Shown here piece after piece: positions 11,510 to 62,559 of a stretch of 64,000 nucleotides of DNA; position 1 is the first letter of the stretch; each line of letters starts with the position of its first letter. The stretch lies in the NCBI RefSeq assembly GCF_030028105.1, contig NC_092394.1:13927939-13991938 (forward strand), written 5' to 3'. This stretch comes from Mobula birostris (lineage: Eukaryota). The position numbers and the translations under genes were made by a program. Below the pieces are notes generated by a model. The model saw only the letters and a program-made list of their open reading frames with translations. It searched no databases and had not been told where the DNA came from.

Positions 11510-11512
11510 TCA

Positions 11513-18060: not shown

Positions 18061-18117
18061 CTTTGAACCCTTCTCCCACTGCTCCCATTCATCCCCACCC
18101 ACCCAACTATTCAATAT

Positions 18118-18419: not shown

Positions 18420-18669
18420 CAACTATTCAATATGATCTATGCTAACCTCAACCCCTCATTTGTGCGAGTTCCCTGTAGCCCTCAATTCCTTGATCTTCCA
18501 AATATCCAGCTCTACCTTAAATATAATGAACTCGGAGCAGAGAATCCCAGAGATTCGCCACCCTCTGTGAGATGAAACTTCCTCGCAGAAGTCCCGTGCA
18601 GCTATTTTCCCCTTGCCCGTGACTGTCCCAATACCGAAAACATTTCCACATCTATCCCGTTAAGTTACC

Positions 18670-22204: not shown

Positions 22205-23715
22205 GTTACAAACAGGAGGAAGTCTGCAGGTGCTGGAAATCCAAAGCAACACACACAAGACTGGAGCAACTCAGCAGGCCGGGCAGCGTCTCAGACCCCT
22301 CCTCAGGACTGAGACGGAAGGGGGAGGGCGCAGGGGAAAAAGGCTGGTTGGAAGGTGATAGACAAAGCTAGGTGGGAGGGAAAGGTCAAGGGCTGGAGAA
22401 GAAGGAATTTAATAGCAGAAGAGAGTGGACAATAGGAGAAATGGAAGGAGGAGGGGAATTGGGAGGAAGTAATAGGTAGGTGGCCAAGAGGTTAAGGCAT
22501 TGGACTAGCAACCTGAAGGTCGTGAGTTCAAGCCCCAGCCGAGGCAACGTGTTGTGTCCTTGAGCAAGGCACCTAATCACACATTGCTCTGCGATGACAC
22601 CGGTGCCAAGCTGTATGGGTCCTAATGCCCTTCCCTTGGACAACATCGGTGTCGTGGAGAGGGGAGACTTGCAGCATGGGCAATTGCCGGTCCTCCATAC
22701 AACCTTGCCCAGGCCTGCGCCCTGGAGAGTGAAGACTTTCCAGGCGCAGATCCATGGTCTCGCAAGACTAACAGATGCCTTTACTAATAGGCGGGTGAAA
22801 AAAAGTAAAAGGTTAGAACGAGGGATAGAGAAAAGGGGGTTGGGGAGTGAATTTGTTTACTGAAAGGAGAAATCTATATTCATGCTTCAGGCTGGAGTCT
22901 ACCCAGTTGGAATATAAGGTGTTGTTCCTCAACCCTGAGGGTGGCCTCATCATGGAACAAGTGAACGCTGTGAACTGACGTGTCGGAACAGGAATGGGAT
23001 TAGGAATTTCAATGTTTGGCCAGTGGGAAATCCTGCTTATGTCAGGAAGTGCAGAGGTGCTCGACAAAGCAGTCCTCTAATTTACGACGGGTCTCACCGA
23101 TCGGGAGCACCGGACACAAAAGACGACTCCAGCAGATTCGCAGGTGAAGTGCTGCCTCACCTGGAAGGACTGGTTGGGGACCTGAATGGAGGCGAGGGAG
23201 GAGGTGTAGCATTTAGGCCACTTGCAAGGGTAAGTACCTGGAGGGAGATTAGTGGGCAGGGACGAATGGACAAGGGAATTGCAGAGGGAGCGATCCCTGT
23301 GGAAAGTGGAGGCGGGGGGAAGTAAAGATGTGCTTAGTGGTAAAATCCCTTTGGAGATGGCAGACATTGCGGAGGATAATGTGTTGCAGAGTCTGGAGGG
23401 GTGGTAGATAAGGACAAGAGGAACGCCTATCACTATTGAGGTGGCAGGAAGATGGGGTGAGCGTGGATGTCTGGGAAATGGAGGCGGTGCGGGTGAGGGC
23501 AGCATCAATAGTAGAGGGAGGGAAACCCCATTCTTTAAAGAAAGAGGACACCTCCTGGAATGGAAAGCCACATCCTGAGAACTGATGCAGTAGGGGCAAA
23601 GAAACTGAGGGAAAAATAGCATTTTTGTAGGAGATAGGGAGGGAAGAGGTATAGTCAAGATACCTGTGGGCATCAGTAGGTTTATAAAAGACGTCAGTTG
23701 ACAGTTTGTCTCCAC
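22205..23715 (-). mobile_element. Penelope-like element 3' part (RT thumb plus GIY-YIG region) interrupted by a SINE
   Basis: TDVFYKPTDAHRYLDYTSS and FQVRQHFTCESAGVVFCVRCSR motifs; terminal repeat near 22210-22310. Confidence 0.85.
22480..22784 (+). mobile_element. tRNA-derived SINE, same family as 18118-18419, opposite orientation
   Basis: Near-identical body; TAATAGG on both flanks. Confidence 0.88.
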
Positions 23716-25537
23716 AATGTTGAAAGGTGGATGTGGAGAGGATGTTTCCTGTGGCGGGGTATCCAGAACTAGAGGGCACAGCCTCAAAATTGAGGGGCGC
23801 CCTTTTAGAACAGGAATCTTTTTGGCCAAAGGGTGGTGAATCTGTGAAATGCTCTGTCACAGACTGTGTTGGAGGCCAAGTCCATGGGTATATTTAAAGC
23901 GGAAGTTGATAGATCCCTGATTGGTCAGGGCATCGAGAGATATGGTGAGAGGGCAGGTGTATGGGGTCAGTGGGATCTGGGATCAGCCATGATGAAATGA
24001 TGGAGTGGACTCGGTGGAATGGATGAATGGCCTAATTCTGTTCCTATGTCTTATGTCTTATAGACAAGGCTCTCATCCTAAATACTCATAAGTCATTCCA
24101 GATCCAGATCTAGGATAACTATACCCTTTCGTTTTGGGAATCGTTACGGTGATACCCTAAGTTGGGAATCCTGTGATTTTTTTTATTGATTACTGTAAGT
24201 AATTAGTAAAAAAAACTACAAGAGACACCAACTCGTAATGGAGAGGATGAAAGTAGAGACTTTTCTGAAGGAACCTGTCCCACAGCTGATCAGAGCAGTG
24301 CTTCAGATATCTGGCTACCTCCTTGTCTGAAGCTGATGACTCAGAGGTGACTAGGAGGGAGGGGTAGAGTCACTAAACGAGCTTTATATTTGGTACATTA
24401 ATTTGCTCGTTTGTTTATTCATTTAGTGATGTAGTGCAGAACAGGCCCTTCCAGCCCAACGAGTTGCACTGCCCAGCCACCCCTCTGTTTAACACTAGTC
24501 TAATCACAGGACAACTTGCAATGACTAGTTAACTCACTAATCCTAACTGTATGTCTTTGGAATGTGGACAGAAACTGGAGCACTTGGAGAAAACCACGTC
24601 GTTCACAGGGAAAACGTACAAGCTCCTTAGAGACAGCACCAGAATTAAACTTTGAATTCTGGAACGCCCCGAGACGGAATAGTGACACTAACCCTACACT
24701 ACCATGGCGTTTATTATAACAGTTGAACCATTTGACAGATTTGTGGCAGGAAATATAGTGAATCGAAAGGTTCTTAAGACATTGTGTTTGAACCTTAAGA
24801 GAAAAATCATCACAACTGCCTGTCAGATTATCATGAATTACTTTTAACCCTCTATTTGTATGTTTTACATTTAACAGTATAATACTTTGTAATCGGAAGC
24901 AAACTCTAAGCATTGGGAACTGAGTGACAGGTACAGTTTGTCTTGCTCAGTGGGTATTGCACTTGATAAGTTTATTGGCTTTCATCCTCAGTGGTATATC
25001 TTTCATGCCACTTACAAATATTTTGTGAAGAAGGTAGCTCTGCTGTTCAAAATATGGGAACTGTTAACGACAGAAATATCGTCATTCCCTTTGCCTTTTC
25101 CTCCCTGTACTGTGAACGTTACTATAAGGAGTACAGATGGTGTCTTCAGTTTAATTTGGAGAATCAGCACAGTAACAGGCTCTTCAGATCTAATCAGCCC
25201 ACGCCCATGTGACCAATTAACCCACTAACCTGTACATCCTTGGAAACCCACCTAGTCATGGGGAGATCATCAAAACTCTTTAGACACAGCAGCAGAATTC
25301 AACCCGGTGCTATAATAGTGTTACGCTGACTTCTACGCTACTGTGCCACACAATATTGGTTTTACCAGTCATACCAAACTTAATAACGTAATTCCCTGTT
25401 TAAAAGTTGGTGAGTTGAGGTCCCACTGCAAAGCTTGAGCTTGAATATGACTGACACCCCAGTGCAGTACAGAGGGAGTGCTGCACTGCCAGAGCTACCT
25501 TTCATGTATTAAACTATGGCCTTAACGCTGTCCTGGT

Positions 25538-29805: not shown

Positions 29806-30356
29806 CACTCAGTGGCCACTTTATTATATACACCTTTATACCTACTCGTTCATGCAAATATCTAATCAGCCAATCATATGGCAGCTGCCAAATGCATGAA
29901 AGCATGCAAACATGGTCAAGAGGTTCAGTTGTTGTTCAGACCAACCATCAGAATTGGAATAAGTGTCATCTAAATGACTTTGACTGTGGAATGATTGATG
30001 GTACCACACATGGTGGTTTGAGTATCTCAAAAACTGCTGATTTTCTCACACTACAGTTCCTAGAGTTTACAGAGAATGGCACAAAAAACAAAAACTCCAA
30101 TGAGCAGCAGTTCTGCGGGCAAAAATGCCTTGTTAATGAGAGGTTGGAGGAGAATGACCAGACTGTTCAAGCTCACATGAAGGTGACTAACTAAAATAAC
30201 TGCAGATTACAACATGGGTGTGTAGAAGAGCGTCTCTGAAAGCACAACATGTCAAAGATAGAAGTGGATGGGCTACAGCAGCAAAAGACCATGAACATAC
30301 TCTTAGTGGCCACTTTATTATGTACAGGAAATACCTAATAAAGTAGCCACTGAATG
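29806..30356 (+). mobile_element. Non-autonomous Tc1/mariner element
   Basis: TA|CACTCAGTGGCCACTTTATT ... AATAAAGTAGCCACTGAATG|TA; internal decayed transposase N-terminus (DFDCGMI.G...GGLSISKTAD). Confidence 0.88.
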
Positions 30357-30559
30357 TATACACAAACTGAGTAGCTTGTCAAGTAAGTTTATTTTGCATT
30401 GTTACAAATCATTTTGGTAGATGCACTTTCAGTAAACTTATTTTCCTTTTATTGATTGAGAAAATATTTTGTATTTAATTCTAGAATGATGCTTTTTTCA
30501 CTGTTGTGACAAGTCCTTATGTAATAATCTTCATTAAACCAATAAATGATAAATGTAAA

Positions 30560-31510: not shown

Positions 31511-33408
31511 AATTGCACACTTTAGGTTGTTAGGTTAAGGAAATACACTTTTATTTAGGTATTTTTTAAAATAATCATTGCACATATAAAGTCAAAATAA
31601 TTATGATATTTCCAGCAGATTAAGTAACCAAGACCATATGATTAAAAGATCCTCCTGTTATTTATTTATGGGAAGGAAGCAACACAGGCAATGATTGCCT
31701 TTATATTATACCCTTAATTGCTGTGAAATGGATCTCTTTTTGAAATTTTACATTTACTATAGTGTTACTTTGGGAATTATACAACTGTTTTTAATCTAGC
31801 AAATATTAGGTGGGTTACTCTCCGGTCAGGAATCCTGGGGGTGTAATCAAAGTAAGAATAATGGAGTTGAAATCTAATTTGGGAAGTAGATACATACTGA
31901 AGCACTTGGAAGAGTATTGTTCCAACTCCCAGTTCAAATAGATCAGACTGAACTAAAATTTATTACACAACTGGAACCTGGCATTTTCCCATTTCAGTTT
32001 CTTATATTCATACATTTAAAAATGTATAAATTTGTATGAATATAAGAAACTGAAGCAGGAAGATGGAGGTTGAGCAAGCAAGCTGCAAAATGTAGGTCTA
32101 TTCCATGGAATCCTAAAAGCCCCAACTTGTTGAAAGGCAAGGCACTGTTCCTTGGGATTATGTTGAAATAGTGGAAAAGGCAACAACTAGAGAGGCTGGA
32201 GCAAGTGGAGAATTAATGTGACAGGAAACTGGAAGCTCAGGATCATCCCAGCTGAATTAACGGAGTTGTTCTGCAACACAATCACCCAGTGTGTTTGGTT
32301 TCTCCAGCACACAGTAACCACATTGTGAATGCCAAATGCAGTACTAGATTGAAAAAGCAAGTGAACTGCTCCTTCTTCTGTTTGGGGCAGCACGGCAGCG
32401 TAGCTGTTAGCACAATGCTTTACAGCACCAGCTGTAAGATCAGGATTCAACTCCTGCCACTGTCTGTAAAGAGCTTGTACTTTCTCTCCGTGACCATGAG
32501 GGTTTTCTCCAGGTGCATTTCAAAGATGTACGGTTAGGACTAGTGAGTTGTGGCTATGCTCTGTGGTTCAATGAGCGTGCTGTCACTTACGAGCTGCCCA
32601 ACACAATCCTCGCTGATTTGATTTGATGCAAACGTCGTATTGTACTGTTTCGATGTACACGTGACAAATACAGCTAATCTTTATCTCCGGGTCCTGGACC
32701 AGTTAGACTGCAGTCAGATACAGGCCAATTTGGGCAAAGACAACAGATTTCCTTTCCCGAAGACAATCGGTGAAGCAGATGTTACTTTATAAATGAAAAC
32801 TGGTAACAAAATGGATATTATTACTACAGGTTTTAAAAGAAATCCAGATTCAAGGTCACATTATTAATTTGAACAGAAAATTGTTGGTTCAAGTTGATGT
32901 GTGCATTATTTTCTCTTTCCATGTTTACAGTAACAAGATGTAGAACAAGCCATTATTTTGACTGCTATCCACTGCAAACACGCTCTTTAGTAATGCTCAC
33001 TGCATCAGTCAGAAACAGTTTTGATGGGTAAACCACAGACTGAAACATTATACATTATTTATTAATAGTCATAAAGGACAGCTAATAAACAAGATCATAT
33101 ACATTGCAAGATTGATTTATTAGCTATAACATAAAATATACAAAGTATTTACATAATTAGCTTGCAGAAATTGTATCTGATAAAGTGTATTTCAACATTG
33201 TGCAGTAAAAATTGCTGATACAGTCCAAATGACTACATATAAATCTGCATTATAGAAATATATGCTTTATATTCACTGAAATAGCAATTCAAAAATGCAG
33301 TGTGTGTGTAAAGTCACTGTGTTGATGGAATGGCATACTGGAATAATCACTGAAATCTCTGCATTGTTGTGACATATACTTCTCACTTTAGTGTCTCTCC
33401 TTCTCATG

Positions 33409-38739: not shown

Positions 38740-40145
38740 CTTGGCAGTGTGGAGGATCAGAGGGATCTTGGTTTCGAGTCCATAGGACACTCAAAGCTGT
38801 TGCACAGATTGACTCTGTGGTTAAGAAAGCATACAGTGCATTGGCCTTCATCAATTGTGGGACTGAGTTTAAGAGCCGAGAGGTAATGTTGCAGCTATAT
38901 TGGGCCCTGGTCAGACCCCACTTAGAGTACTGTGCTCAGTTCTGGTCGCCTCACTACAGGAAGGATGTGGAAACCATAGAAAGGGTGCACAGGAGATTTA
39001 CAAGGACATTGCCTGGATTGGGGAGCATACCTTATGAGAATAAGTTGAGTGAATTCGGTCTTTTTTCCTTGGAGTGACAGAGGATGAGAGGTGACCAGAT
39101 AGAGTTGTATAAGATGATGAGAGGCATTGATCATGTGGATAGTCAGAGGCTTTTTCCCAGGGCTGAAATGGCTAGCATCAGTCATTGAAAGTGGGCATGC
39201 AGGTACAGCAGGCGGTGAAAAAGGCAAATGGTATGCTGGCATTTATAGCGAGAGGATTTGAGTACAGGAGCAGGGAGGTACTACTGCAGTTGTACAAGGC
39301 CTTGGTGAGACCACACCTGGAGTATTGTGTGCAGTTTTGGTCCCCTAATCTGAGGAAAGACATCCTTGCCATAGAGGGAGTACAGAGAAGGTTCACCAGA
39401 TTGATTCCTGGGATGGCAGGACTTTCATATGAAGAAAGACTGGATGAACTGGGCTTGTACTCGTTGGAATTTAGAAGATTGAGGGGGGATCTGATTGAAA
39501 CGTATAAGATCCTAAAGGGATTGGACAGGCTAGATGCAGGAAGATTGTTCCCGATGTTGGGGAAGTCCAGAACGAGGGGTCACAGTTTGAGGATAGAGGG
39601 GAAGCCTTTTAGGACCGAGATTAGGAAAAACTTCTTCACACAGAGAGTGGTGAATCTGTGGAATTCTCTGCCACAGGAAACAGTTGAGGCCAGTTCATTG
39701 GCTATATTTAAGAGGGAGTTAGATATGGCCCTTGTGGCTACGGGGGTCAGGGGGTATGGAGGGAAGGCTGGGGCGGTGTTCTGAGTTGGATGATCAGCCA
39801 CGATCATAATAAATGGCGGTGCAGGCTCGAAGGGCCGAATGGCCTACTCCTGCACCTATTTTCTATGTTTCTATGAGAGGGCACAGTTTCAAGGTGCTTG
39901 GAAGTAGGTACAGAGGAGATGTCAGGGGCAGGTTTTTTTACGCAGAGTGGTGAGTGAGTGGAATGGGCTGCCGGCGACAGTGGTGGAGGTGGATACGATA
40001 GGGTCTTTTAAGAGGACAGATACATGGAGCTCGGTAAAATAGAGGGCTATGGGTAACCCTAGGTAATTTCTAAGGTAAGGACATGTTCGGCACAGCTTTG
40101 TGGGCCGAAGGGCCTGTATTGTGCTGTAGTTTTTCTATGTTTTTA
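38740..40145 (+). mobile_element. Older CR1 3' part hosting a nested young CR1
   Basis: RPHLEYCAQFWSPHYRKDV; host sequence GCTAGCAT|GAGAGGGCAC is split by the insert. Confidence 0.9.
39179..39874 (+). mobile_element. Young CR1 3' fragment nearly identical to 15011-15714
   Basis: About 14 differences in about 700 nt by manual comparison. Confidence 0.95.
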
Positions 40146-42877: not shown

Positions 42878-43305
42878 ACAACAGGAATTCTGCAGATGCT
42901 GGAAATTCAAGCAACACACATAAAAGTTGCTGGTGAACGCAGCAGGCCAGGCAGCATCTCTAGGAAGAGGTGCAGTCGACGTTTCAGGCCGAGACCCTTC
43001 GTCAGGACTAACTGAAGGAAGAGTGAGTAAGGGATTTGAAAGTTGGAGGGGGAGGGGGAGATCCAAAATGATAGGAGAAGACAGGAGGGGGAAGGATGGA
43101 GTCAAGAGCTGGGCAGGTGATAGGCAAAGGGGATACGAGAGGATCATGGGACAGGAGGTCCAGGAAGAAAGACCGGGGGAGGGGGGGGAGACCCAGAGGA
43201 TGGGCAAGGGGTATATTCAGAGGGACAGAGGGAGAAAAAGGAGAGTGAGGAACGTGTGTATAAAAATAAGTAACAGATGGGGTACGAGGGGGAGGTGGGG
43301 CATTA
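42878..43305 (-). mobile_element. Penelope-derived 3' terminal fragment carrying a hammerhead motif
   Basis: Well-preserved terminal repeat; hammerhead core at 42974-43009. Confidence 0.8.
42974..43009 (-). ncRNA. Minimal type I hammerhead ribozyme motif
   Basis: AGUC-CUGACGA-A-GGGU-CUCG-GCCU-GAAA-C-GUC/GACU: stem I AGUC:GACU, core boxes present, palindromic ACGU stem III as in Penelope hammerheads. Activity not shown. Confidence 0.7.
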
Positions 43306-44592
43306 GCGGACTTCCTTCTGAATTCCAGCGAGTACAGACCCAGAGCCATAAAACATTCCTTGCATGATAACCCTTTCATTCCTGGAATCATTCTTGTGAA
43401 CCTCCTCCAGACCCTCTCCAATGCCAGCACATCTTTTCTAAGATGAGGGGCCCAAAACTGTTCACAATACTCAAGATGAGGCCTCACCAGTGCCTTATAA
43501 AACCTCAGCATCACATCTTTGCTCTTGTGTTGTAGACCTCCTGAAATGAATACTAACATGGCATTTGCCTTTCTCACCACTGACTCAACCTCAAATTAAC
43601 TTTCAGGGTGTTCTGCACAAGGACTCCTAAATCCCTCTAATCTCAGATTCCTGGATTTTCTCCCCGTTTAGAAAATAGTCCGTACATTCATTTCTACTAT
43701 AAAAGTGCATTACCATGCATTTTCCAACTCTGTATTTCATTTGCCACTTTCTTGCCCATTCTCCTAATCTGTCCAAGTCCTTTTGCATCCTACCTGTTTC
43801 TTCAACACTACCTGCCCCTCCAACAATCTTTGTATAATTTGCAAACTTGGCAACAAAGCCATCTATTCCATCATCTCAATCGTTTATATACAGCATAAAA
43901 AGAAGCGGTCCCAACACCGACCCCTGCGGAACACCACTAGTCACTGGCAGCCAACCAGAGAAGGATCCTTTTATTCCCACTCGCTGCCTCCTACCAATCA
44001 GCCAATGCTCTAACCATGTTAGTAACTTTCCTGAAATACCATGGGCTCTTAACTTGGTAAGCAGCCTCATATGTGGCACCTTGTCAAAGGCCTTCTGAAA
44101 GTCCAAATATACAACATCCACTGCATTCCCTTTATCTATCCTACTTGTAATCTCCTCAAAGAATTCCAACAGGTTTGTCAGGCAGGATTTTCCCTGAAGA
44201 AAACCATGCTAACTTTGCACTATCTTGTCCTGTGTCACCAAGTACTCCGTTACCTCATCCTTAACAACTGACTCTAACATTTTCCCAACCACTGACGTCA
44301 GGCTAACTGGTCTACAATTTCCTTTCTACTGCGTTCCTCCTTTCTTAAAGAGTGGAGTGACATTTGGAATTTTCCAGTCCTCTGGCACCATGCCAGAGTC
44401 CAATGATTTTTGAAAAATCATTTCTAATGCCACCACAATTTCTAACACTACCTCTTTCAGAACCCTAGGGTGCAGTTCCTCTGGTCCAGGTGATTTATGC
44501 ACCTTTAGGTCTTTCAGCTTTTTGAGCACCTTCTCTCTTGTAACAGTAACTGCACCCACATTTCTTCCTTCACACACTACAACATCAGGCAT
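43306..44592 (-). mobile_element. Degenerate CR1 LINE (RT region)
   Basis: [39 protein letters not shown] and RPHLEYCEQFW motifs with frameshifts. Confidence 0.92.
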
Positions 44593-46898
44593 ACAGTGAT
44601 TATGGTCGACTAATAAATTATCGTGATTTGGTTTTATATATAGTGTTTTAATCGAATTCTTAAGTTGGAATCAAAGACAATAATAATCTAATCTGAGACG
44701 ACCATCTAATATTACCATTCTATAATCTAAATTCTTGTGTACTTTAAAATCTACAAGAAACTTACTCAAAATGTCAAGTATAATTGTATGCAATTCATCA
44801 CACATCCTTTTCATCAGTACTTCAGAATTAAGCAGCTAAGTAATTGGGATCTTTTTTTAATTGTACTGTTAATGATACCTTAGTACTGAATCCTTGATAA
44901 GTTACAGCAGGAGGAAAAGAATTACCATTTCTTAAGAGTGACATTCCAAAAAATTTGAATTCAGTTTCTGAAAGATTTTGGAGCCTCCCTTCCTGTTTAG
45001 TGTAGGCTTGCAATTTTTTTCAAACCACATACAAAAAGTTAATTTTTCACCTTATAGAGATACATAGAGAGATCCTTTTAGGGACAAGTCTAACACCTGC
45101 TGAGACCTTATAAAGGTTTACATTGTGGTTGTCTAGACACCACCCCATACAATCAAACCACATCCTTCCTATATTGTACTACTGTTACTGAAGCGAGTGA
45201 AACACAAAGGATGTAGTTGATTCTCAACCTGAGTTTGTGCAGTTGATCTTAAAAGTTAACTTTAAAATATGGAAAACCCAAATTTCATTAGGAATTCATA
45301 CAAAGATTTACTTCTAATACATTGAAAATATTTGTGGAGCAAGTAGCAATTTTACTGAACATGAATTATTACTGAAGTCACAAAGGTTTTAGAGATATAC
45401 ATTTCTAAATCTATCAGATCCCCTGCACTCCTTTTATTAAAAATCTATTGTTTACACAGTTAGTTTAAATGGACTGATCATAATCCACAGTGTTATAAAT
45501 GCAGATTTATTCCCTATTTTCTTTTTTTTATTATTTCAATTACAACCATGAACTCGTTTGTCTCCTCTTGCTTAATTAATTTCATTCATTTTAGAAGGTG
45601 TAAAAGTAAGTCTATCTCCAAACCTCGTCGAATTCCATTTTGTATGGAACTTTGTCATCTTGATTGATGATTAAAATAGCAGAAGGCTGCTTTTGAAACC
45701 TTGTCAGGATGAGACAGACAGCGCTGGGTAAACTTTATAAATCAGCACCATAGTAGTGTTCAGGTTAGTGTGATGCTATTACAGTTCAAGGCATTGGAGT
45801 ACCATTCCAGCTCCTCTGTAAGCAAGTTCGTACGTTCCTTCCCGTGTGCGGGATTTCCTTCGATGCTCCAATTTCCTCCCAGTCCTAAGATGTACTAGTT
45901 GTAGGTTAATTGGTCATTGTAAAAAATTGTTCTGTGATTAGGCTACAGTTAGTTAGGCTGCTGGGATGTGTGGTTCGGTGGGCCAGGAGAGCCTGTTCCA
46001 CACTGTATCTCTAAGTAAAAGAAAAATAAAATGTGGGAAACAGCCGATTAACTTCCTTGGAGAGGGTGGATCAGAGGAAAAGGTGTAAAGGTATCGGTAA
46101 CTCTACCATTCTACAATTTACAGAAGCTCAACATCATTGAAAATGTCACCTACATGTTATTCCACACAGCAGTCCAAACACTTTAATAACTTTCTCCACT
46201 AGGTCTCTGTTAACAATGTTTTAAAACTCCTTAACTGCAGAAATTTCTTCAAAATCCCTATGTTGTAACTGAAAGGGTAGAATATTTGAGCTTAGTCCCA
46301 AAGTGAACCTTTTTTCTTAATTAATGACTGTTTAGGAACTCTAGATTCTTCTGAGATCAGTTTATTTCAACTTCTTCACTGCAACCAACTGCTATGTATT
46401 CAGCCACATGGGTTTCTAATTATCACACCTCTTGCAACCTTTCATAAAACCTACCTGTATGACCAGGCTTTTATTAACCCATATTACCTCATCCTTGGCT
46501 CAGCGCCATATTTTGTCTGCATATGACTGAGAAATATGACAAGATTACCGCAGTAAAACTTCCATCATGCATACTAATTGAGATAACAAAAGATAAGAGG
46601 AGCCTCACAGAAAGGAGCTGGAAGAAGTCGGCGAGCCAGGCAGCATCTATGAAGGGAAATGGTTAGTCAGCTCTTCATCAGGACTTTTGTGAAATGCTGC
46701 CTGGCTTGCTGAGTTCTTCCAGCACCTTCGTGTGTTGCTCCATATTTTCAGCATCTCCAGTCTAGTGTGTCTCCAAAGGATAATAAGGTAGTATCTCTCT
46801 AAGAGGATTCTCTGAGAATCCTCATACTGCTGCTGTATGAGGAGGGTAACTCTCTCTGCTACAATCCTTACACAACACTGAAGTTAGCAATTGAGTGA

Positions 46899-47104
46899 AC
46901 ACAAAATAATCTGCAGATGCTGGGGTCAAAGCAACACTCACAATACGCTGGAGGAACTCAGCAGGTCGGGCAGCATCTGTGGAAAAGATCGGTCAATGTT
47001 TCTGGTCGGAACCCTCCGTCCTGACGAAGGGTTCCGGCCCGAAACGTCAACCGATCTTTTCCACGGATGCTGCCCGACCTGCTGAGTTCCTCCAGCATGT
47101 TGTC
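46899..47104 (+). mobile_element. Palindromic Penelope-derived hairpin element, copy 1
   Basis: 84-nt inverted arms (46937-47020 / 47023-47106); hammerhead core 47021-47048; AGCAAWTGAGTGA at 46886-46898 and 47105-47117. Confidence 0.85.
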
Positions 47105-48427
47105 AGCAAATGAGTGAGGAGTCTGTATTTCCGATCCAAAGGACTTCCTACAGTTCTATGGATGGAACTCTGTTCTGACAGTGACTGATGAAATTAGCCA
47201 TACTTTCTCTCAAGTATGAATCACGAGAAAATTAAATTAGGCTTCATTTACTGGCATTCTGATCTTTGGAGTTTTCTATACCAGGATATACAAGCTATTC
47301 TTAAACTATATTCAAGACTAAAATAAGAGATTTTGGGATAAGCCAGGAAAGCATAAAAATTCAGCACACAAAATGGAAACTAAGCATAGTTACCTAGTCT
47401 GGTTTCAACTTTAGCACTCCAAAAAGCTACAGCATTCTTTCTGCACTCTGCTTAAAGAATTTCCTCCAGTTGAATGCTTTTTTACTGCCAAAAACATCTT
47501 ACGTTGTTCAAGGTCAGATGTAGCTCGCCATCTACTATTCAAGCAGTTGCAGTCCAAGCATCTGAGCCAAAATCCCTGACAGCAGGGCAAGTGAAGTCTA
47601 CCTCATTGATTCCATCATGGCTATTTGGATTTATTGAGTACGCCCACAAGAAAACACATTCCAGGACTGATAATACATTTACTCTGAACTTTGGAGTGTG
47701 GTGCTACCAGAGGAACCTCCTTCGGAATGAGGTATTGAACACATGTGTTTTATCCAAGGATCGCCACCTTGTGGAGAGGTTTGTGAGTTCCTGAGAGCAA
47801 CACCATCTGGAGTTTAGCCACCTAGCTCCTTGTAGAATCAACCATGGCATCAGGGGGGAGGTTCCAGACAAAATTTGATCCAACCAAGATCTCAACGGCA
47901 GAGCTGGTGGAAGACGATGTCACAGCACAGCAGCAGTGAAGGGTCCCCAGTCGTCTTGCATTCTATGCCACTGGACCCCCACGCCGATTTGTTAAGCGGC
48001 CGCCCGTACATCAGCCTCCCCATGTTTAACAAAGTCACACACAGCCGTTCTCCATTAAATGAATCCACACTACCAAACGGGATCCTGGATTGGTCTCTAC
48101 AGCCACCTGAGGACCAACCTTAGAACATCACACCCAATTAAAATGATTGCACTATTACTAAGCTCCATTGGGGCATAAAGGATGGAGACCACAATAAGAC
48201 GGAGTCTGGAGGAAAATAAAACAAGCTGCAGGAGGAACTCAGCGGATCTGTAGCGGGAAACGACCAATCGACCCTTCATCTGGACTGGCAGACCTGAAAT
48301 GACAATTACCCATGTTTCTTTACAGATGCTGCCTGACATCCTAGTTCCCCCAGCAACTCATTTATTGATAGGGCACAAGAGATCCTACATAAGTATTTAC
48401 AAGAATAACAAGAGAAGATAGTCAATA

Positions 48428-49435: not shown

Positions 49436-51406
49436 GTGAGTGGGCAGCGCCGACCGCAGGCTCGGTCCTGCTCCAGGTATGGGGGCTTGGGCCTGCTGAG
49501 GACGATTCAGTTAGGTGGATGGGCTGACTGGTGCAATACTTGAGGGGTGAAACGCGTCACCCACGCATGTTGCTTCACAGGCAGGCTTACCTTTCTGTAG
49601 CGGCTTTAACATCTCTCCCAGGCTCTTATAACCCGGTTCTGATATGTGCTTCACATTTTGTGTACAGTGAAATCCCAGAAACGACGGTTTGCCAATCACC
49701 AGTTGATGTTTTGTTTTGCTTTGGGTTTGGGGATAAGTAGGAGATCTTCCCACTCTTCATAATATTAATATTTTTGCCTGAACTTTTACCTGTGGAAAAA
49801 AAAACTAGTTCTCAGATGAAAAGAAACTCTTCAGCCTTGCTTTAATTCCTCAGGGCAGCACCAGTGTGAAGGTAGACATTTGTGCTCGAGTTCACTTTGT
49901 GCCTTTAAACAACACACAAATGCTGGAGGGGAATCAGCAAATCAGGAAGCATCTATGGAGGGAAATTAACAGTCGATGTTTAGAGCGGAGGTCCTGATGT
50001 TGCTCGAGATTTTCAGCATCTGCAGAATTTCTTCTACACTTAAAAACAACTTTTTGACTTTGCAAGAGAACAGCTGCTGCTTAAAACAAGAGATCTACTG
50101 AGTATCTGAAGCAATAATACAGATGCATTTAAGGGGAGACTGGGTATGTAGAATGGAAAAGTGAGCGATGAGTTATGTTGATGGATTTAAATATAGAAAA
50201 GTAGAATAGGCTACAGGATTGGTTAGAATGAAAGGACAATTACTGGATATCTAACATTCTCCTATTTCCAATCCATTGCAGCCAGAAATTACTCTATTTA
50301 GAACAGTTGAAAGGTAGTAATTCATTATTTTCAATTGGAAATTACTTGTTAAATGCAGAATGAACCTGAATAATTCAAGGTTGGATGAATCAACAGGCCA
50401 ATATTACATTCTCCAACAAAGGACCTAATTATTGCACAGTTAGAGACAGACTTGGCTAATGGATAGACTATAAGGAGTAATGGTTCTGAACTTGTAGACC
50501 TTGGATTGCAAGCATTTCTGCTTCATCACTAACAAAAAAATTCTTGATTTTTTTTTATTATTGGCTCTGCAGGATGTCTCTAAGATTGTTGAAATTTAAC
50601 TACTGTTTTGAGTCGACTGACTAGCAGAGATCATAGAGTTGAGATAAATTTGTTGCTTTAGTTTTGGCCATCAGAAGCTAATGGAAATGCCATAAAGGTC
50701 AGTAATTGGGCCCTTGGCTCCCAGTGGTGTATAAGCCATCGATGTACTCACATCTCCATCGTCCTCTTAAGTCGATGGTATGTTTTGAGGTCATCAATGC
50801 TTCTGCAATCCATTGCATCCACTGTACAGGGGATTGGCCTATACAACTTCTCCAGAGCCCTGTTGGCTGACCTTGCCTGTTTCCACTTCTCATGACAGGG
50901 ATGTAGGGTTGGACTTTGAGAGGCAAAGATCAGTACAGGGGTTTCAATCTGTATTAAGGACTTGGATGCATGGTGCACTTAGCTGATGGAGCTGCAGCCT
51001 CACAGCACCAGATATGCACGTTCAGTCCAAATCTTGGGTGCCATATATTCTTCATGCGAGGATTTTCTTCTGACTTCCTCTTGTATCCCAGCGTAGTGTA
51101 GATTGGTATGTTAACCGACCATTTTAAATTTCCCCTGGTGTTAGGTGAGTAGTAGAACCTGATGTGGGTGTTGATGAGAATGTGGAGAGAACGAAAAAGT
51201 AATGTCTAATTAGAAATGGATGATAGGTGGTCAGCACGGATTTGGTGGTCTGAAAGGCTTGTTCCCTGCTGTATGACTCAATGAAGAGACGAAGTGTACT
51301 GCAGGCATGTTTTCTGATTTAAAAAGTTATGTTGTGAAAATAAATTGTTAGCAAGTTTTGATGGTCATGGCCAGAGACAAGGATCCGATTGATTAACGCA
51401 CAGTTA

Positions 51407-51679: not shown

Positions 51680-53703
51680 TTATCGCACAGTTACAACAAG
51701 TAATTGGGAAGGCTGATGGAATGTTGGACTTTATTGTAAGGATATAAAATATGTAATAGGTAAGTTTTAATATAACTCTACAAGGCAGTGGTGGGACTAC
51801 ACCTGGAGAGCTATGTATTGTTTTGGTCTCTTTTTAAAGAATAATGTTCGCCATTTTAAAATTTTCACTATGGTTATTCCTGGGATCAAGTTTAAAACAT
51901 GAAGAGAGGTTGAGCAGAGGTTTTTGGGACTATAGTCATTTGAACTTATGAAAGTGACATCTCATTAAGGCAAGCAAGATTGAGAAGGTTTGACAGAGTG
52001 GGCATTAAGATGTTCCCCCTGGTCGGGTTACCTCCAACTAGATGACATTGATTCAGAGAAGAAGTTACTCATTTAAGGAGATGAGGAATTTCTTGGACTA
52101 CTTGGAGTGGAGATTCTCAGACATTTGAACTACAATGCACTTGAGCAGTAGAGGAAAAGTGCTATTGAAAACGGATTTGGATCAACCATTAACTTGAATA
52201 TTGCTGCAAACTTGAGGGGCAGATTGACCTTCTCCTGCTTACTCTAGGTATAAGATGACCAAACTCTAAACTCTACTGTTAGAATTGTCATCTTCCAAAT
52301 GAGAGATTAAACTGGACTCTACTAAGCTCTAATACAAAAATCCCATTGTTCCTGACTCATCTACACCCATCCCATTTCAATCATTCCTTATTATATGGGT
52401 AACATAATACTGTTCCTTCTGTGAAGAATTTAGTAATTTTAGTGCAACTGGCACAAACTTTGGGTAGATAGTATTTGAAATGGTGATACTTGCATGCAAG
52501 TTCTCAAGTTTTGGATTGATGTTTGGGAAATGCAGCATGTCTATCAAAATGAAAATTCTGAAGGTTTGCCAAGTGTAACAAAATGGACAGTTCATTTCAT
52601 GGGTGGATTAATGTTTAAAGGCCTGAGGGGATAATGTTTTGCTGAATGCGTAAGCTAAGAATGTAAAGTATCTGATTCAATGTGATTCAGATCCAGCGTG
52701 ATCCTTTAGTATGATGTTTGGATTATCTTGTTTTCAGAATCATTTATTATCATTGATAATATGACATGAAATGTTCTGCAGCACAGTATAGTGCAAAGAC
52801 AAATCTATAAATTACGAAGTTCGAAAAGTTTGCTCTTATTTTCCCTCAAGATTCATTCCAAGTATCAATAAATTCAAATTTGTATGGTGTTAATGTGCCA
52901 GGATGCTTCACAGGTTCGTAGTCAGACAGAAAGTAACATCCAACGTGTGGGTGATGTGGGAAGAAAGATCAAAAGTTTGACAAAGATAAAGGTTTTAGGA
53001 ATTAGAAGGTTGGGAGAGTATACTTTAGGCATATGACTATACTTGTAGTAAAATCTCTCAAATTAACAAATTTCATGACACATGCCAGTTAGAATAAACC
53101 TGGTTCTGATTCTAATGATTTGGTTCAAAGGAGGAGCATACATGAAGCAAAATTAGGAGATAAGGGAAAGATGCATACATGGAGGGCATTGGAGATGGGA
53201 CATATAAGGCCACATTCAAAGTCCATTGTGCATTTTTGCAATTTTGTTAGATTGAGTCACTATGTGTTTTCTATTGCTCGAGGGGTTCTGTGTAGAGCTA
53301 TTCATTACACTTAGCACATAGCAAAAATCTGATCTAAACTAGGAGGCTTTTGAAAAATTCTTTTAACCCACTGATTTCTACCACCAGTGAACTGATTTTT
53401 TTTGAATGCAGTGCAACAGGATGAAATGAGGCATAGATCAAATGGAGAGCTATTTTTCCCCTAGGTGGAAATAGCTAATACAAGGGGGATTTTAAAGTGA
53501 TTGAAGGAAAGTATAGGGGGATGTCAGAGGTAAAAAGCTTTTTACACAGTAGGTGTGTAGAAGGCCTTGTTAGGGGTGATGGTAGAGACAAATACATAAG
53601 GGACATTTAAGCGGCTCTTGAATAGACACATAGATGAAAGAAAATTTGGGACAGAAGAGTTAGATTGGTCTTAGAGTAGGTTATAAGGTCAGAACTTTGT
53701 ACT

Positions 53704-53910
53704 CACAAAATAATCTGCAGATGCTGGGGTCAAAGCAACACTCACAACACGCTGGAGGAACTCAGCAGGCCGGGCAGCATCCGTGGAAAAGATCGGTTGA
53801 CGTTTTGGGCTGGAGCCCTTCGTCCTGACGAAGGGTTCTGGCCCGAAACGTCGACCGATCTTTTCCACGGTTGCTGCCTGGCCTGCTGAGTTCCTCCAGC
53901 GTGTTGTGAG
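53704..53910 (+). mobile_element. Palindromic Penelope-derived hairpin element, copy 2
   Basis: 84-nt inverted arms (53741-53824 / 53827-53910); hammerhead 53822-53855; perfect 14-bp TSD CAGAACTTTGTACT at 53690 and 53911, within a CR1 tail. Confidence 0.9.
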
Positions 53911-55654
53911 CAGAACTTTGTACTGTAGTGTTCTGTGTTCTATGTAACACTGCATGTCATATGAGTGAACATGGCTTCCAACCATTACAATTGCAGGGGA
54001 CTTATTTTTGTTAGGGACAATGGAAGTTCCTCATCTGTAACTTCCAGAATTGGTGCACATCAGCTGATGCTTGTAGTTTGTTATTCATTTGAAGTGGGCC
54101 AGTCGGTCAGTAAGCATTACTAATTGTGCAGAAAAAGAATCTCGGTTGGTATATGGTGACATAAATGTACTTTGAAATTAAATTCTTTGAATTTGAAGGA
54201 CTTGCTGGGATGCTAGACGAACTTGTTACTGAGAGTAAAGATCAGTGAATATAACATTCCTCTTCCTGTTTGCCTTTCTAGGAAGTGCTTTGCTCTTTAA
54301 ATTAGCCACCATGCATCTCAGTCAGGAAGATGATAATATCAAAGCATCCAAGTTCCTACAATGGTATTCGGAAATGTGTGCCAGCTCTGTAGCTGAGGGT
54401 GGGAATGTGGACAAGTGTGCATCTGGAGTGCAGTGGAAGTGGTGCCATGTGTGAGGTCAGGGTCAGGAACATGAAACTGGGTGGAGATGGGTGGGAAAGA
54501 CAGAAACAAGGAAGGAAGCAATGGTTATAATGGGATTCGAAGGTACTCAAGCCAGCAGCAGTGTTCTATGATAACCTTGGATAACTTGCCAAGAAATTTT
54601 CTAGTATTTAAAAAAAAAATGCCCATCATCCATATAACAACTGCTTCAGCGTTTTGGTACAGATGTATGCCATTTCATCAATTTTGCCCTCTTTGAAGCA
54701 TCTGGTTTTCAAATAGGACTTGCCATATCTTCACAGATTGTGACCCTTCAGATTACTATACTGTATCAAAGTGACAACTTAATGATAGATGGGGTGCTCC
54801 CACTGCTACGTAGGAATCAGACCTTTTCTTAAAATGTGGGCAATTCCATGACTGGCAGAGACATTGGACTTCCAACATGGACCATGTCTCGGTATATTTA
54901 AAGCAGAGGTTGTCAGGTACTTAGCAGGAACATCAAAGGTTATGAGGAGAAGGTAGGAGGACGGGGTTAGAAGGAAAATAAATCGGCAATGATTGAATGG
55001 CAGAGCAGACTCTCCCATATAACCCCCCATTTTTTTCTTTCATTCATGAGCCTATCTAAGAGTGTCTTAAATGTCTGTAATATATCTGCCACTACCACCA
55101 CTCCTGGCAAGGAGTTCCATGCACCCACCACCCACTGAGTGCTGGAAATGATGAGTACTCCATTGACCAAGGATGCTGCATCCTAGCTGTCCAGATATAC
55201 AAGCCTGAACAGTGCGTTATGGAGAGCAAGCTGTTGCCCATGTAGCAAGCTCCCCATCTCCATGCTTCTGATGAACCCAAAGGAATGGTCTGCATTGAAC
55301 TCCAATTGCCTTAGGAACTTCAACTCTGGATTTTTACCTCTGGGTTTACTTCCAATCCTTCTCCATGAGTAGGTATAGCCGCAAGGCAGCGGAGGTTTGA
55401 GATCAGAGTTTTCCTTCTAAGTGAGCTACCAACCATGACTGACGAGTCCTATCTGCCCAAAGTGACTGGTTTTAGGGTGCCACTGTTGCCCTTCTCCTGC
55501 CAGTAGAAATGGTTCTGCCGGGTTTAGTAGCTAAGCCGCACATGAAGGCCAGGAGCTGGGCTTGGTTGTCAGAGGCTATTTGAGCTGCATCCCACTGGGA
55601 GCCTTTAATAGGTAGTGGAAGCTTATCCCTATCACCACCCCCGGCTATAACACT

Positions 55655-57281: not shown

Positions 57282-58050
57282 CAAGTGAAACACAGCAAAA
57301 CCTGGAACTCCAATTTCAATAGTGAAGCAAGAGGCTAGCTCAGGAAATCTGATAGACCTGGCACACAGCAAGGTTCAGGGAATGAATAGATAGCACTTTG
57401 TTTTGGTCACAAGTGGATTTGAGCTTTAAGTGCTGGCATTGTGCTGTGAAGAATGAGTGAGTGGTCTGGGCTTGTGCTCTCTGACATTTAGAAGGATGCA
57501 AGATTACTGCATTGATGCACGTGATTCTGGAAGGGGCTCTACAATGATAAATACTTAAAGATGTTTTGTGTAGAATTAGAGGACAATTTCTCAGATTAAG
57601 TTGTCTCCTTGAGAGATGATAAATTTCTTGTGTGGTTATGAATCTTTAGAATTCTTCAAATCCGACCAGTCTGAGTACAGTGTATTGAAGACTGAGATAG
57701 ATTCTTACTCCATAATGGAGTCAATACCAGGTTGAAGCCAAAGATCAGAATGGCAGAACAACTTGGGGATTTCTGGCTTATGCCTGACCCTATCACTTGG
57801 GTGCTTTGGGGTTATTTTAAAAGCGCATAATATAGTCTTGCAAACACGTTTTTGAATGGGTGCAAAATGTTGTTTATCATCTTTTAATGATCATTGCTAA
57901 AATTTTCCTTATTTTCAGTGGTGCAAAGGTTATGAACACCAGTGAACGTGACCAGACCTTGACTCGTTTTTGTCTGGCTCGCACACACCAACCACGGAGG
58001 GACGGATTAAGCCGACTGTGTGCAGAGTCACCATTTATCTTCAGAGAGAG

Positions 58051-58264
58051 ATGTCTGGGGATACCTGCTTAACATCACCTTGTCCTCCCTCTGGAGCCAA
58101 ACCCAAGGCCATCAGCTTTAAAGGAGGAAGCATGGGGAACAAGTACATCAGGTTAAATGTTGGAGGCTCGCTGTACTATACCACTGTTCAGATTTTAACC
58201 AGGCACGACACCATGCTGAAGGCAATGTTTAGTGGAAGAATGGAAGTACTGACTGACAAAGAAG
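58051..58264 (+). CDS. TNFAIP1: TNFAIP1 (BACURD2, KCTD-type BTB adaptor) first coding exon; gene continues beyond the window
   Basis: [71 protein letters not shown](G); the MSGDTCL start and adjacency to IFT20 favour TNFAIP1 over KCTD10/13. Acceptor ttttcag ends 57918; donor GTAAAT at 58265. Confidence 0.93.
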
Positions 58265-59253
58265 GTAAATGCATTTTTATGGATTGTTTTAGAAGGCTTT
58301 TAACTATTGGTATTTGTCCAGCACCCTTCACAGTTTTGGGGTATGTCGAAGTGCCTCGATCAATTAAAGTACTTTTGATGTGTTATCAAAGGGAAACCAG
58401 TCTGTGCAGAAATTTCCCACAGACATTGGTCATCACCATGATTGTAGCAGAGGAGAGTGTGGTAATGTATTAAAATGTGAGCGAGGGGTAGAAGGCCTTT
58501 TAATCCTTGTTTTTCTAATATGGTGGATTCTTGGAAAATTGTCTTCCCCAGTGTATGAAATGATGCAAGCGAAAATTATTGGAAATTAATGCAGGAGGTG
58601 GTTTTAAAAACTTTGTGGTTTTTAAATGGAAGTTTAGTGCATGCTATAAGATAAAGCTGCAGTCTGTCAATTCCCGTGCGCTTCGGGTCAGGCCAAGTAA
58701 CGGGGGTGGCTCCACTGCCACTTCCAGCTGCCGGGGGCCCGGGCTGTCGATTGGGTCAGGCCCTGAAGTTGACACTTAATCCCGGAGGGCCGGGCTCCTG
58801 GCTGAAACAAGTCCTTAAACTGAGTCACAGTTGCGGAGGCCTCCGCTCCAGCCGAGCCTCGGGCTCAATTTCCGAGGTCGGCAGCGGAGGCCTCACTTCC
58901 AGCAGCTGTGGATGGCCACCAACGGGACTTTACGGTGGTCATTTCAGGGAAGTGTCTGGGGCACCTTGAGGTCTCTGCCGTCACTTCTGTGTGGTCGTCT
59001 GCTCCGGAGAGGTACCGGTCGGAATGGGCTGTGTCTCCGAGCCCTCCGGCACGGTAGCAGACCGCGAGTCTTCGGGAACGTGGTGGACCTCGTTGGTCGG
59101 GTTCAGGTGCGGTCTGGAGTTTAAGAAGCAGTTCTGGCGCAGTGGTCTCCAGCTGGGTCAGTAGCTTCGCCAGGGTGTTGTTAATCTTGATTTTGCTAGA
59201 TTGGAGCTTTAGAAGGGTTTTCTCAGGTATAGGATAGTGGAGAGGGCAGTTTG

Positions 59254-61141
59254 CTCGGGAGAGCACACGCAAAGTCGCTACACGGAATCCAGGCGTGAAC
59301 TCTGGAAAGCCATTAAGGGTGCCAGGAGGCAACATCGAGCCAAGTTGGAAGCACAGGCTAACCAAAAGGATGCCAATAGACTATGGCAGGGTCTAAATGA
59401 GATCACTGGGTGCAAAGAAAAGGCTGAGAATATCAATAACTGTGGCACTTCTCTTCCTGACGAACTTAACGTACTCTACGCAAGATTCAAACAGAAGAGG
59501 AGCGACCTGCTCCCTCTGGATGAACCGGACCTGGTGGCATCGAGATTCATCGTCACCGAGGAGGACGTTAGAAGGGCCTTCCTGAAGATAAATCCAAGGA
59601 AGGCAACAGACCCAGATGGCATCCCAGAACGGGTTCTCCAGGCCTGTGCAAGCGAGCTAGCTGGAGTGTTTGCTGACATCTTCAACTGCTCCTTGCTTCA
59701 GTCTAAGATCCCCTCGTGTTTTAAGAAGGCAACGATAATCCCAGTGCTGAAGAAGAACAAGGTGGCATGCCTGAATGACTATCCACCTGTGGCTCTGACA
59801 TCAATTGCTATGAAGTGCTTCGAGAGATTCGTTATGGCACACGTCAACCACAGCCTGCCAGTCAACCTCGACGCTTTGCAATTTGCCTACCAGAGCAACA
59901 GGTCAATGGCAGGTGCTATCTCTCTGGTCCTACATTCCTCCTTAGAACACCTGGAGAATAAAGGCGCATACATAAGGCTCCCTTTCATTGACTACAGCTC
60001 TGCCTTTAATACCATCATTCCAAATAAACTGATTCCTAAGCTCCAGAACCTGGGCCTTAGCACTCAGATCTGCAGCTGGATCTTCAATTTCCTCAGACAG
60101 GACCCAGGCTGTAAAAATAGGGAACAAGCTCTCTTCTACAATCACTCTGGGCACCGGTGCCCCACAAGGCTGTGTACTCAGCCCCCTGCTGTACTCACTG
60201 TACACCCATGATTGTGTAGCCAAGTTTCCATCAAACTCAATATATAAGTTTGCTGATGACACAACAATTGTAGGCCATATATCGGGTAATGATGAGTTTG
60301 AGTACAGAGAGGAAATTAAGAACCTGGTGGCATGGTGCGAAGACAATAACCTATCCCTCAATGTCAGCAAGACAAAGGAATTGGTTGTTGACTTCAGAAG
60401 GAGCAGCGGACCACATGACCCCATTTACATCGGTGGTGCGCAAGTGGAACAGGTCAAAAGCTTTAAGTTCCTCGGGGTCAATATCACAAATGACCTGACT
60501 TGATCCAACCAAGCAGAGTTCACTGCCAAGAAGGCCCACCAGCGCCTTTACTTCCTGAGAAAACTAAAGAAATTTGGCCTGTCCCCTAAAACCCTCACTA
60601 ATTTTTATAGATGCACTGTAGAAAGCATTCTTCTAGGGTGCATTACAACCTGGTATGGAAGCTGTCCTGTCCAAGACCGAAAGAAGCTGAGAAGATCGTG
60701 AACACGGCGCAGCACATCACACGAACCAATCTTCCATCTGTGGACTCACTTTACACCGCACGCTGTTAGATCAGTGCTGCCAGGATAGTCAAGGACACGA
60801 CCCACCCAGCCAACACACTTTTCATCCCTCATCCCTCCAGCAGAAGACTCAGGAGCTTGAAGATTCGTACGGCCAGATTTGGGAACAGCTTCTTTCCAAC
60901 TGTGATAAGACTGCTGAACGGATCCTGACCCGGATCTGGGCCGTACCCTCCAAATATCCGGACCTGCCTCTCGGTTTTTTTGCACTACCTTACTTTCCAT
61001 TTTTCTATTTATAATTTAAGTTTTTAATTTTTACTATTTTTAATATTTAATATTTGTAATCCAGGGAATGGGAAGCGCAGAATCAAATATCGCTGTGATG
61101 ATTGTACATTCTAGTATCAATTGTTTGTTGACTATAAAGTA
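59254..61141 (+). mobile_element. Rex1/Babar-type LINE, RT region and 3' end
   Basis: [54 protein letters not shown] and NFYRCTVESIL motifs; few frameshifts. Confidence 0.93.
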
Positions 61142-61289: not shown

Positions 61290-62020
61290 TACAAGCGGCC
61301 AAGTGCTACACTTGCCCCTACACCTCCTCCCTCACCTCCATTCAGAGCCTCAGACTGTCCATCAAGGTGAGACAACACATCACCTGCAAATCTGCTGGGG
61401 TCGTCTATTGTGTCCGGTGCCCCCTGTGCAGCCTCTACGTTGGTGAGACCCCTCATAAATTAGGGGACCACTTCGTTGAGCACCTCTGTTCTATCCGTGG
61501 AACTTCCCAGTGGCCAAACATTTTAATTACGATTCCTGTTCCAGCATGTTGGTCCATGGCCACCTCTTCTGCCAAAATGAGGCTACCCTCAAGGTGGATA
61601 AGCAACACTTTATTTTCTGTTTGGGTAACCTCTGACCTGGTGTCAATTTCTCCTTCCGATAAGCAAATTCATCTCTGCACCGCCCCCCACATTCCCTAGT
61701 CTGACCTTTTTACTATTTCTCACCTGGGTACACCACACCCCCGCTTCCCTTTCTTCTATGGTTCACTCTCCTCTCCTATCAAATTCTTTTTTATCCAGCC
61801 TTTCACCTTTCCCACCCATCTGGCTATCACCTTCCAGCTAGTCTCTTTGCCTAACCACCTCCCTCCACCCACCCCCCCCCCCCCAGCCGCCTTGTTATTC
61901 TGGCATCTTCCCCCTTCTCGGTCTTGAAGAAGGGTCTTGGCCTGAAACATCAACAGTTTACTCTTTTCGATAGATGCTACCTGACTTCCTGAGTTTCTCC
62001 AACGTTTTATGTGTGTAGCT
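61290..62020 (+). mobile_element. Penelope-like element 3' part (GIY-YIG endonuclease remnant plus terminal repeat)
   Basis: KVRQHITCKSAGVVYCVRCPLCSLYVGET..KLGDHFVEHL; decayed hammerhead near 61921-61955. Confidence 0.85.
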
Positions 62021-62559
62021 GTGTCTTATTTTTGCATGGATTGGGAGGTTTAAGGAGTAATCATGGAATTATTTGGCACTTAGAGTGAGAAAATAGTTAT
62101 AAGGTCATTAAATCATCATACAAAGATTCTAGACCCATACAATTATGCAAACTTATCAGTTATAATATTACAGTGATCAGTCATTGTTTGCAGTCTATGG
62201 AAACCTGTGCACAGATACATAATGATACAAATTATATGGATTGCCGTGATTGGAGGAATGATAAGGTAGGAACCAATCAAAACAACAGTGCTAAATTGTG
62301 AAATGTATGTGAAGAGCCAAATGCCATGCCTCACCATGGAAACTGGAAAATAGATGCACCATATCACATTTAGTTGCAGTTTTTGGGTTAAAACTTGAGG
62401 GAGGGAAGGTTTTAAATATCCAGAGGTGAGGTCCTAAGGAGGTTGTTGTCCTGTTCTGGGCCTTAGTCTGACCATTTTTCATCCACTTAATCATAAAGTT
62501 GTGTGAAAAAGGAGCCAATCCATTAGTTTTCACATCACAGCAGTGAAATGCTATCTCAT

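Follow-up and report, generated by a model that had tools for sequence, protein, structure and literature searches.

The origin of the inverted termini of Penelope-like elements (PLEs) is still described as undefined (PMC8557442; here and below, papers are cited from the accessible parts of their text). The question is raised by a head-to-head insertion of 207 nt at positions 46900-47106 of the window, i.e., the whole 64,000-nt stretch of DNA that was analysed. This insertion, copy A, consists of a 37-nt tail and two 84-nt arms separated by a 2-nt pivot, and it has a twin within the window, copy B (53704-53910). An earlier note on this DNA had ascribed the same leader, arms and pivot to both copies, which is correct in each respect. 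The leader occurs twice in the window (46900-46936 and 53704-53740) and is identical at 37 of 37 nt, the arms are 84 nt long and 2 nt apart in both copies (88% complementary in copy A, 92% in copy B), and the pivot TTCGTC-CT-GACGAA is common to the two, with one change in copy A. In the sense order of the element, copy A comprises an inverted tail-less arm, the pivot, a direct arm and the tail; it carries the termini alone, with arms of equal length and no ORF. The predicted fold is a hairpin of -153.8 kcal/mol (z -17).

Both copies are flanked by a TSD, which in copy B is perfect and 14 nt long (53690-53703/53911-53924). The 13-bp TSD with one mismatch that had been assigned to copy A exists, but the final 2 nt of the right arm belong to it as well, and A46899 intervenes between it and the leader; the unambiguous core of this TSD measures 11 nt (46888-46898/47107-47117), and the match can be extended to 16 nt with 2 mismatches. 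One contig of a related species (organism C, X10 record 9) presents the empty site, with 46888 joined to 47107 (218 nt are skipped, 219 being expected), so that copy A is a true insertion. A contig of organism B (X5 record 31, 47081-47240) spans the right junction but ends short of 47077 and has 26 nt in the element, fewer than the 31 nt of the rule applied, and gives only a hint that copy A is present in organism B. The coordinates of the features are collected in the table.

Features of copy A, copy B and related PLE sequences in the window
Feature	Position	Strand	Description
Left TSD, copy A	46886-46898	+	Core 46888-46898; a short identity with the tail-less end covers its first bases
PLE tail (leader)	46899-46936	- (sense)	37 nt plus 1-2 nt; end is the putative distal RT start
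Tail-bearing pLTR arm	46937-47020	-	84 nt; 5'-truncated within the hammerhead core, without GTCCT
Pivot	47018-47025	+	Mini-palindrome GTC-CT-GAC, CT at 47021-47022; 3-nt microhomology at the inversion junction
Tail-less inverted pLTR arm	47023-47106	+	84 nt; outer end is the putative internal RT start
Minimal hammerhead motif	47018-47051	+	Read by hand against PMC4209133
Covarying pair, left member	46966	+	T; C in copy B
Covarying pair, right member	47077	+	A; G in copy B
Right TSD, copy A	47105-47117	+	Core 47107-47117; one mismatch
Copy B with TSD	53690-53924	+	Tail 53704-53740; arms 53741-53824/53827-53910; pivot same as in copy A
Older head-to-head pair, same PLE family	46582-46771	.	Asymmetric junction, tail on the right; 115 nt upstream of copy A
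PLE 3' end	61301-62030	+	Broken zinc-finger linker and GIY-YIG remnant (61301-61656), then hammerhead pLTR 61921-62030
PLE 3' end	22212-23716	-	RT C-terminal part and GIY-YIG remnant 23716-22883, UTR with inserted repeat, pLTR and tail 22309-22212
PLE 3' end	42879-43392	-	ORF C-terminal remnant 43392-43182, pLTR with tail 43008-42879

Copy A is almost certainly a stub insertion of an endonuclease-bearing PLE. The Penelope terminus claimed previously is indeed present, as the window has three GIY-YIG remnants that are each followed by a homologous end with the putative hammerhead. A tblastn search of the window with protein P0001 gives matches at 23716-22883 (E 2e-49), 61301-61656 (E 4e-33) and 43392-43182 (E 6e-13), and each of these ORF remnants leads into a terminus homologous to the arm of copy A, and ORF-linked copies have tails homologous to that of copy A; one further match, at 56615, is short and unlinked to a terminus. 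The first piece of the remnant at 61301 is 68% identical to P0001 and P0002, which are named as proteins of two rays, and this points to a host among the cartilaginous fishes. P0001 contains a YIDD motif of RT and shares a Cys-rich linker with the remnant at 61301. Its Pfam GIY-YIG match scores 20.9 bits, below the cut-off of 22.6, and GIY-YIG is found in 16% of the members among atlas neighbours; a GIY-YIG domain search of the window piece itself gave no match. The RT/GIY-YIG ORF lies in family copies and not within the stub. In both young copies, an inverted 5'-truncated pLTR adjoins a direct pLTR and a tail of 37 nt is present on one end only.

An HMM search of the window yielded 27 fragments of the PLE terminus, the nearest older ones being ∼72-83% identical to the subfamily of the young copies. 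The family is abundant: 42,717 of 21.8 million contigs (run X1) match the stretch at 85% likeness, nearly all X1 contig depth on the stretch falls inside the element, and 46898 is the starting position of 8 of the 32 contig pieces listed. Pattern scans for further copies gave 0 and 0 matches in metagenome_contigs and 0 and 0 in viral_contigs; the sole match in genome_contigs (1 locus) lies within a coding sequence of a bacterium and was discarded as fortuitous.

Two other classes of element were considered and rejected. A MITE of a DNA transposon does not agree with the asymmetric 37-nt tail outside one arm, the TSDs of 11-14 nt and the homology of the arms to PLE 3' ends, and a non-LTR retrozyme does not agree with the occurrence of both copies as a single inverted pair with TSD instead of head-to-tail tandem units. 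Likewise, the RT ORFs at 13799-15616 and 59213-60503 were rejected as PLE sequences, as they do not match P0001 and are LINE-like. LINE-like RT remnants (RVT_1) are located at 13799-15616 (+), 59213-60503 (+) and 6426-6905 (-), the first of which is open over 605 aa and has a 300-nt counterpart of 97% identity at 39176-39475. The window further contains two copies of another pLTR subfamily (16800-16918 (+) and 42879-43008 (-), 92% alike over 111 nt), the second of which is ORF-linked. A repeat of ∼300 nt, SINE-like by appearance, is present on opposite strands at 18117-18424 and 22483-22783 (90-96% alike), with the latter copy interrupting the 3' UTR of the PLE remnant 23716-22212. An open frame at 57952-58473 (+) with half a BTB/POZ (BTB_2) domain (E 2e-5) is probably a host exon.

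Minimal hammerheads have been described for metazoan PLEs (Cervera and De la Pena 2014, PMC4209133). By eye, a putative motif can be recognized in copy A, consisting of a CUGACGA core (47021-47027), an unpaired A, stem II (47029-47040), GAAA and a palindromic ACGU, with a predicted cut after C47048; A47049 weakens stem I in copy A. It resembles the motifs in PMC4209133 in its CUGANGA core, the unpaired base before stem II, the G-C closing pair, the GAAA and the replacement of helix III by the palindromic ACGU. Unlike those described there, stem II (4 bp) and stem I (3 bp) are both shorter, and the whole core is present in one arm only, the right arm on the + strand, where the 84-bp hairpin would compete with the hammerhead fold; the same paper mentions dual hammerhead motifs on opposite strands. 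Stem II is predicted to fold, and in the predicted fold of the copy A transcript the hammerhead is buried inside the long hairpin. The core motif read by hand is intact in the right arm and incomplete in the left arm, and an Rfam search matched no hammerhead model, returning only sub-threshold miRNA hairpin matches. Other strong hairpins with sub-threshold miRNA-model matches, at 9659-9824, 30295-30361 and 31976-32071, are probably short palindromic repeats.

The pivot provides information on how the two arms were joined. GTC precedes the hammerhead core in all nine older fragments that reach this point, and therefore GTC-CT-GAC is the natural sequence and the junction corresponds to a microhomology of 3 nt. 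Among the 32 contig pieces listed, four have G 47018 as their first base. On visual inspection, CCCTTC or CCTTTC occurs slightly further 5' in a few of the natural copies, and these bases could extend the pairing at the junction. At the pivot of copies A and B, CT is read on the strand whose first part is the reverse-complemented tail. Since the natural continuation of a tail-primed cDNA is GTC-AG-GAC, its fold-back would leave AG, and a simple fold-back of the tail-primed cDNA is excluded. The natural AG loop belongs to the opposite strand, which starts at the end without a tail; if this strand folded back, no more than its 84 nt would be duplicated, and a template switch would be needed to acquire the tail. 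As DNA, the GTC-AG-GAC hairpin is not formed in the fold prediction. A contig, X1 record 6, crosses the pivot of copy A gap-free over 89 nt (46989-47077) with 13 differences, and probably represents a third copy with the same centre as copies A and B.

A T:A pair in copy A where copy B has C:G had been put forward as evidence that the arms were templated from one another by fold-back synthesis or conversion, or that distinct palindromic masters exist. The pairs are as claimed (T46966:A47077 and C53770:G53881). In an alignment of the four arms of copies A and B, 17 columns are variable, of which this one separates the arms by locus, none by side and one crosswise (column 58, a CpG), the remaining 15 being private. 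The covarying site does not fall in a CpG, being the outer base of a CCGG, and the GGCCGG context has also undergone a C>T change in the left arm of copy A alone (column 70). Overall, the arms are hardly more alike within loci (10 differences in copy A and 7 in copy B) than between loci (12, 11, 6 and 7); a hand count of non-CpG differences gives 4 and 2 within and 5, 5, 3 and 3 between loci, a gap for which the covarying site entirely accounts. CpG decay dominates, with 11 changes in 72 CpG site-arms versus 6 private changes in 260 other site-arms. When four arms descending from one ancestor were simulated, at least one non-CpG column splitting by locus appeared with P 0.06, or 0.10-0.13 with rate variation. 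The signal from this one site is weak, and what the covariation demonstrates is at most that the arms have a common source, not that one was copied from the other.

Of the 27 fragments in the window, 25 cover the equivalent site; 16 have the state of copy A (A) and 9 that of copy B (G), and because both states are spread over these fragments the site is a standing dimorphism of the family. The head-to-head pairs are concordant at this site in five of five cases (permutation p 0.035), a test that takes in copies A and B, which had raised the idea; without the young copies, three of three older pairs are concordant (p 0.14). An X1 contig piece starting at 47077 matches with 0 differences. The 40 listed contig variants include none in 47066-47106, and neither 46966 nor 47077, and were treated as uninformative. 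A tandem array with a 29-nt unit (10923-11584) abuts two same-orientation pLTR fragments (11493-11604 and 11617-11725), which differ at the dimorphic site.

The older pairs differ in the similarity of their arms. The arms of the pair at 46582-46771 are mutually nearest, with non-CpG ranks of 1/24 and 1/23 and five shared minor states, a similarity that 0.4% of 283 background pairs attain. When 21 fragments were aligned a second time, these arms had 8 mismatches in 40, versus 10-11 for the next. The tail-less arm of this pair spans the core, and the start of its tail-bearing arm is located ∼40 nt further inward. The arms of the pairs at 6890-7048 and 48201-48375 are dissimilar (non-CpG ranks 21/22 and 21/22 for one pair, and 20/23 and 18/24 for the other), and these pairs may be separate insertions. 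A TSD search around four older pairs revealed nothing convincing, the best match being 9/10, which is attained by 11% of random pieces. At 49897-50036, a sense tail that has lost most of its sense arm follows an antisense tail-less arm, the two meeting near GTCCTGATG. Among contig joint types, the 15 listed of 274 all lead from the left part into the right part, at places that differ, and 12 of them have unknown sequence between. Of the joints with known letters, 12 of 145 are listed, and 10 of these run left-to-right between 10 different pairs of places; the other two run back from 47102 to 46938 or 46947, i.e., from the end of the sense arm into the antisense arm, and are possibly tail-to-tail arrangements at other loci. 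At 85% likeness, the contig joints may include assembly chimeras.

The reading that we favour, at about an even chance, is an option that the earlier note overlooked: the two arms would be two cDNAs of one source RNA, begun at two known RT start sites and joined at the microhomology. The endonuclease would nick both target strands 11-14 nt apart, giving rise to the TSD, and each 3'-OH would prime RT on one source transcript, or on two transcripts of one source locus. One cDNA would start at the end of the tail and the second 37 nt further in; both would halt near the 5' edge of the hammerhead, with the tail-less cDNA proceeding 5 nt further through GTC-CT. Its 3' GAC would pair with the 3' GTC of the other cDNA, directly or after a brief self fold-back, and fill-in would complete the head-to-head palindrome. 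As the arms would inherit the state of their source at the dimorphic site, they would covary by locus without mutual copying. That both arms of a locus carry the same source state is supported. Templating of one arm by the other is not required, and part of the evidence contradicts it.

Several observations are in agreement with such a two-cDNA route. The arm ends differ by exactly the tail. In vitro, the protein of an anole PLE (PAc), a predicted dimer, cuts and extends both strands and initiates RT at two positions, one on either side of the tail (Frangieh et al. 2024, PMC11167929). The junction is a natural microhomology, and its polarity fits a further-running tail-less strand in copies A and B as well as in the older pair 46582-46771, of which the arms are reciprocally nearest, yet the junction is different. 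The five concordant pairs at a dimorphic site, the absence of side-specific columns and the distinct left-to-right junctions in the family contigs point in the same direction. On the other hand, the young copies offer a single informative site, with a chance probability of 0.06-0.13, and the concordance of the older pairs by themselves has a p of 0.14. The AG hairpin is not predicted as DNA, one of the three older pairs has similar arms while the other two rank near the bottom and have no convincing TSD, and the contig joints may be chimeric. In addition, the single pivot shared by copies A and B and X1 record 6 is explained more simply by a palindromic master.

Non-autonomous palindromic masters are a rather unlikely but possible source of the two copies. 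The palindrome would have arisen once or rarely, and whole transcripts of at least two masters (T:A and C:G) would have been copied in trans. The identical pivot, arm length and tails of copies A and B, the third copy that crosses the same centre in an X1 contig, and the fact that none of the three ORF-linked ends of the window belongs to the subfamily of the young copies are in accordance with this. However, none of the 17 variable columns is side-specific, and covariation between the arms of two masters would itself require re-templating. Moreover, the tail-less end coincides with the boundary of the tail, as expected of an RT start, and the junctions vary across the wider family.

Fold-back over a whole arm, in which the antisense strand primes itself so that one arm copies the other and one tail is then trimmed, appears improbable. 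Self-priming has been proposed for rotifer PLEs from palindromes at inverted junctions (PMC3846280), the junction here is symmetric on a natural mini-palindrome, and covariation by locus is predicted. Nevertheless, a tail-primed cDNA would give AG instead of CT on the + strand, and the strand with the AG loop starts tail-less yet ends with a tail, which requires a template switch or trimming. We consider it equally improbable that the covariation is due to chance, i.e., that both copies had one ancestral sequence and that, once inserted, copy A underwent an identical transition in both of its arms. The simulated probabilities, the C>T change in the same context at column 70 and the crosswise shared change at the CpG in column 58 are consistent with chance, but both states are standing variants in the family and an older pair also has matching arms. 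The clustering of arms by locus or by side that had been proposed as a test would not separate fold-back, twin priming from the same source and several masters. Least probable is the conversion between arms also suggested earlier, by which gene conversion or hairpin repair would have copied a new variant across after insertion: the site lies in a 31-nt stretch where the arms of copy A are identical (columns 11-41), but this stretch is near-invariant in copy B as well, and the arms of copy A differ at 10 of 84 positions while its right arm differs less from the arms of copy B (6 and 7).

In L1 twin priming, a second nick primes a second cDNA, and joining at a microhomology results in a 5' inversion. 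The two cDNAs of L1 cover non-overlapping parts of the RNA, whereas here both would cover the same 84 nt. An inverted pLTR with a tail and a TSD is an already described PLE layout: rotifer PLEs have an inverted pLTR, an optional 31-nt tail and a TSD of 8-10 nt (Arkhipova et al. 2013, PMC3846280), and a tail of 30-40 nt at one end is found across PLE clades (Craig et al. 2021, PMC8557442; also PMC8969392). Copy A resembles the EN+ PLEs of PMC3846280 and PMC8557442 in its head-to-head inverted 5'-truncated pLTR, the tail of such length at one end, the TSD around the whole, the palindrome at the inverted junction and, in family copies, the GIY-YIG ORF upstream of the pLTR. It differs from the EN+ PLEs described in the accessible text in consisting of termini only (207 nt, no ORF) with equal arms, and in the recurrence of one pivot in at least two, probably three, copies.

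With PAc (Poseidon, Anolis; PMC11167929), for which the inverted arm is left unexplained in the accessible text, the element would share two tail-bounding RT starts and the cutting and extension of both strands, and it likewise has a putative pLTR hammerhead. The hammerhead of PAc overlaps the ORF start, whereas the family of copy A has a zinc-finger-like linker before the endonuclease, a trait of Neptune/Nematis (PMC8557442). Non-LTR retrozymes, reported in one chondrichthyan as well, are likewise short non-autonomous pLTR-derived sequences with hammerheads, but they form head-to-tail tandem units, in contrast to the single head-to-head pair with TSD of copy A (bioRxiv 10.64898/2026.07.22.740005). 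A literature search, mostly of titles and abstracts, found no test of arm-shared variants or junction polarity for PLE inversions; relevant material may be contained in the figures and supplements of PMC11167929 and PMC3846280.

The locus of copy A alone cannot settle how PLE inverted termini form. It does offer two usable markers, namely variants shared between arms and the polarity of the pivot relative to the tail, which, if scored over a whole assembly, would separate two-cDNA priming, fold-back and palindromic masters. As a tentative generalization, every PLE insertion may build its inverted termini from two cDNAs of one RNA stretch, with the tail-less cDNA leading, always extending further, and the join occurring at the GTC-CT-GAC of the hammerhead itself. 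If this is true, a transcribed palindromic stub would re-copy both arms from its single sense arm in each cycle; it would be a non-autonomous PLE that homogenises itself, keeps its pivot and shows no divergence between left and right, and PLE inversion could be tested from sequence alone on the tens of thousands of fragments that the family has in this lineage.
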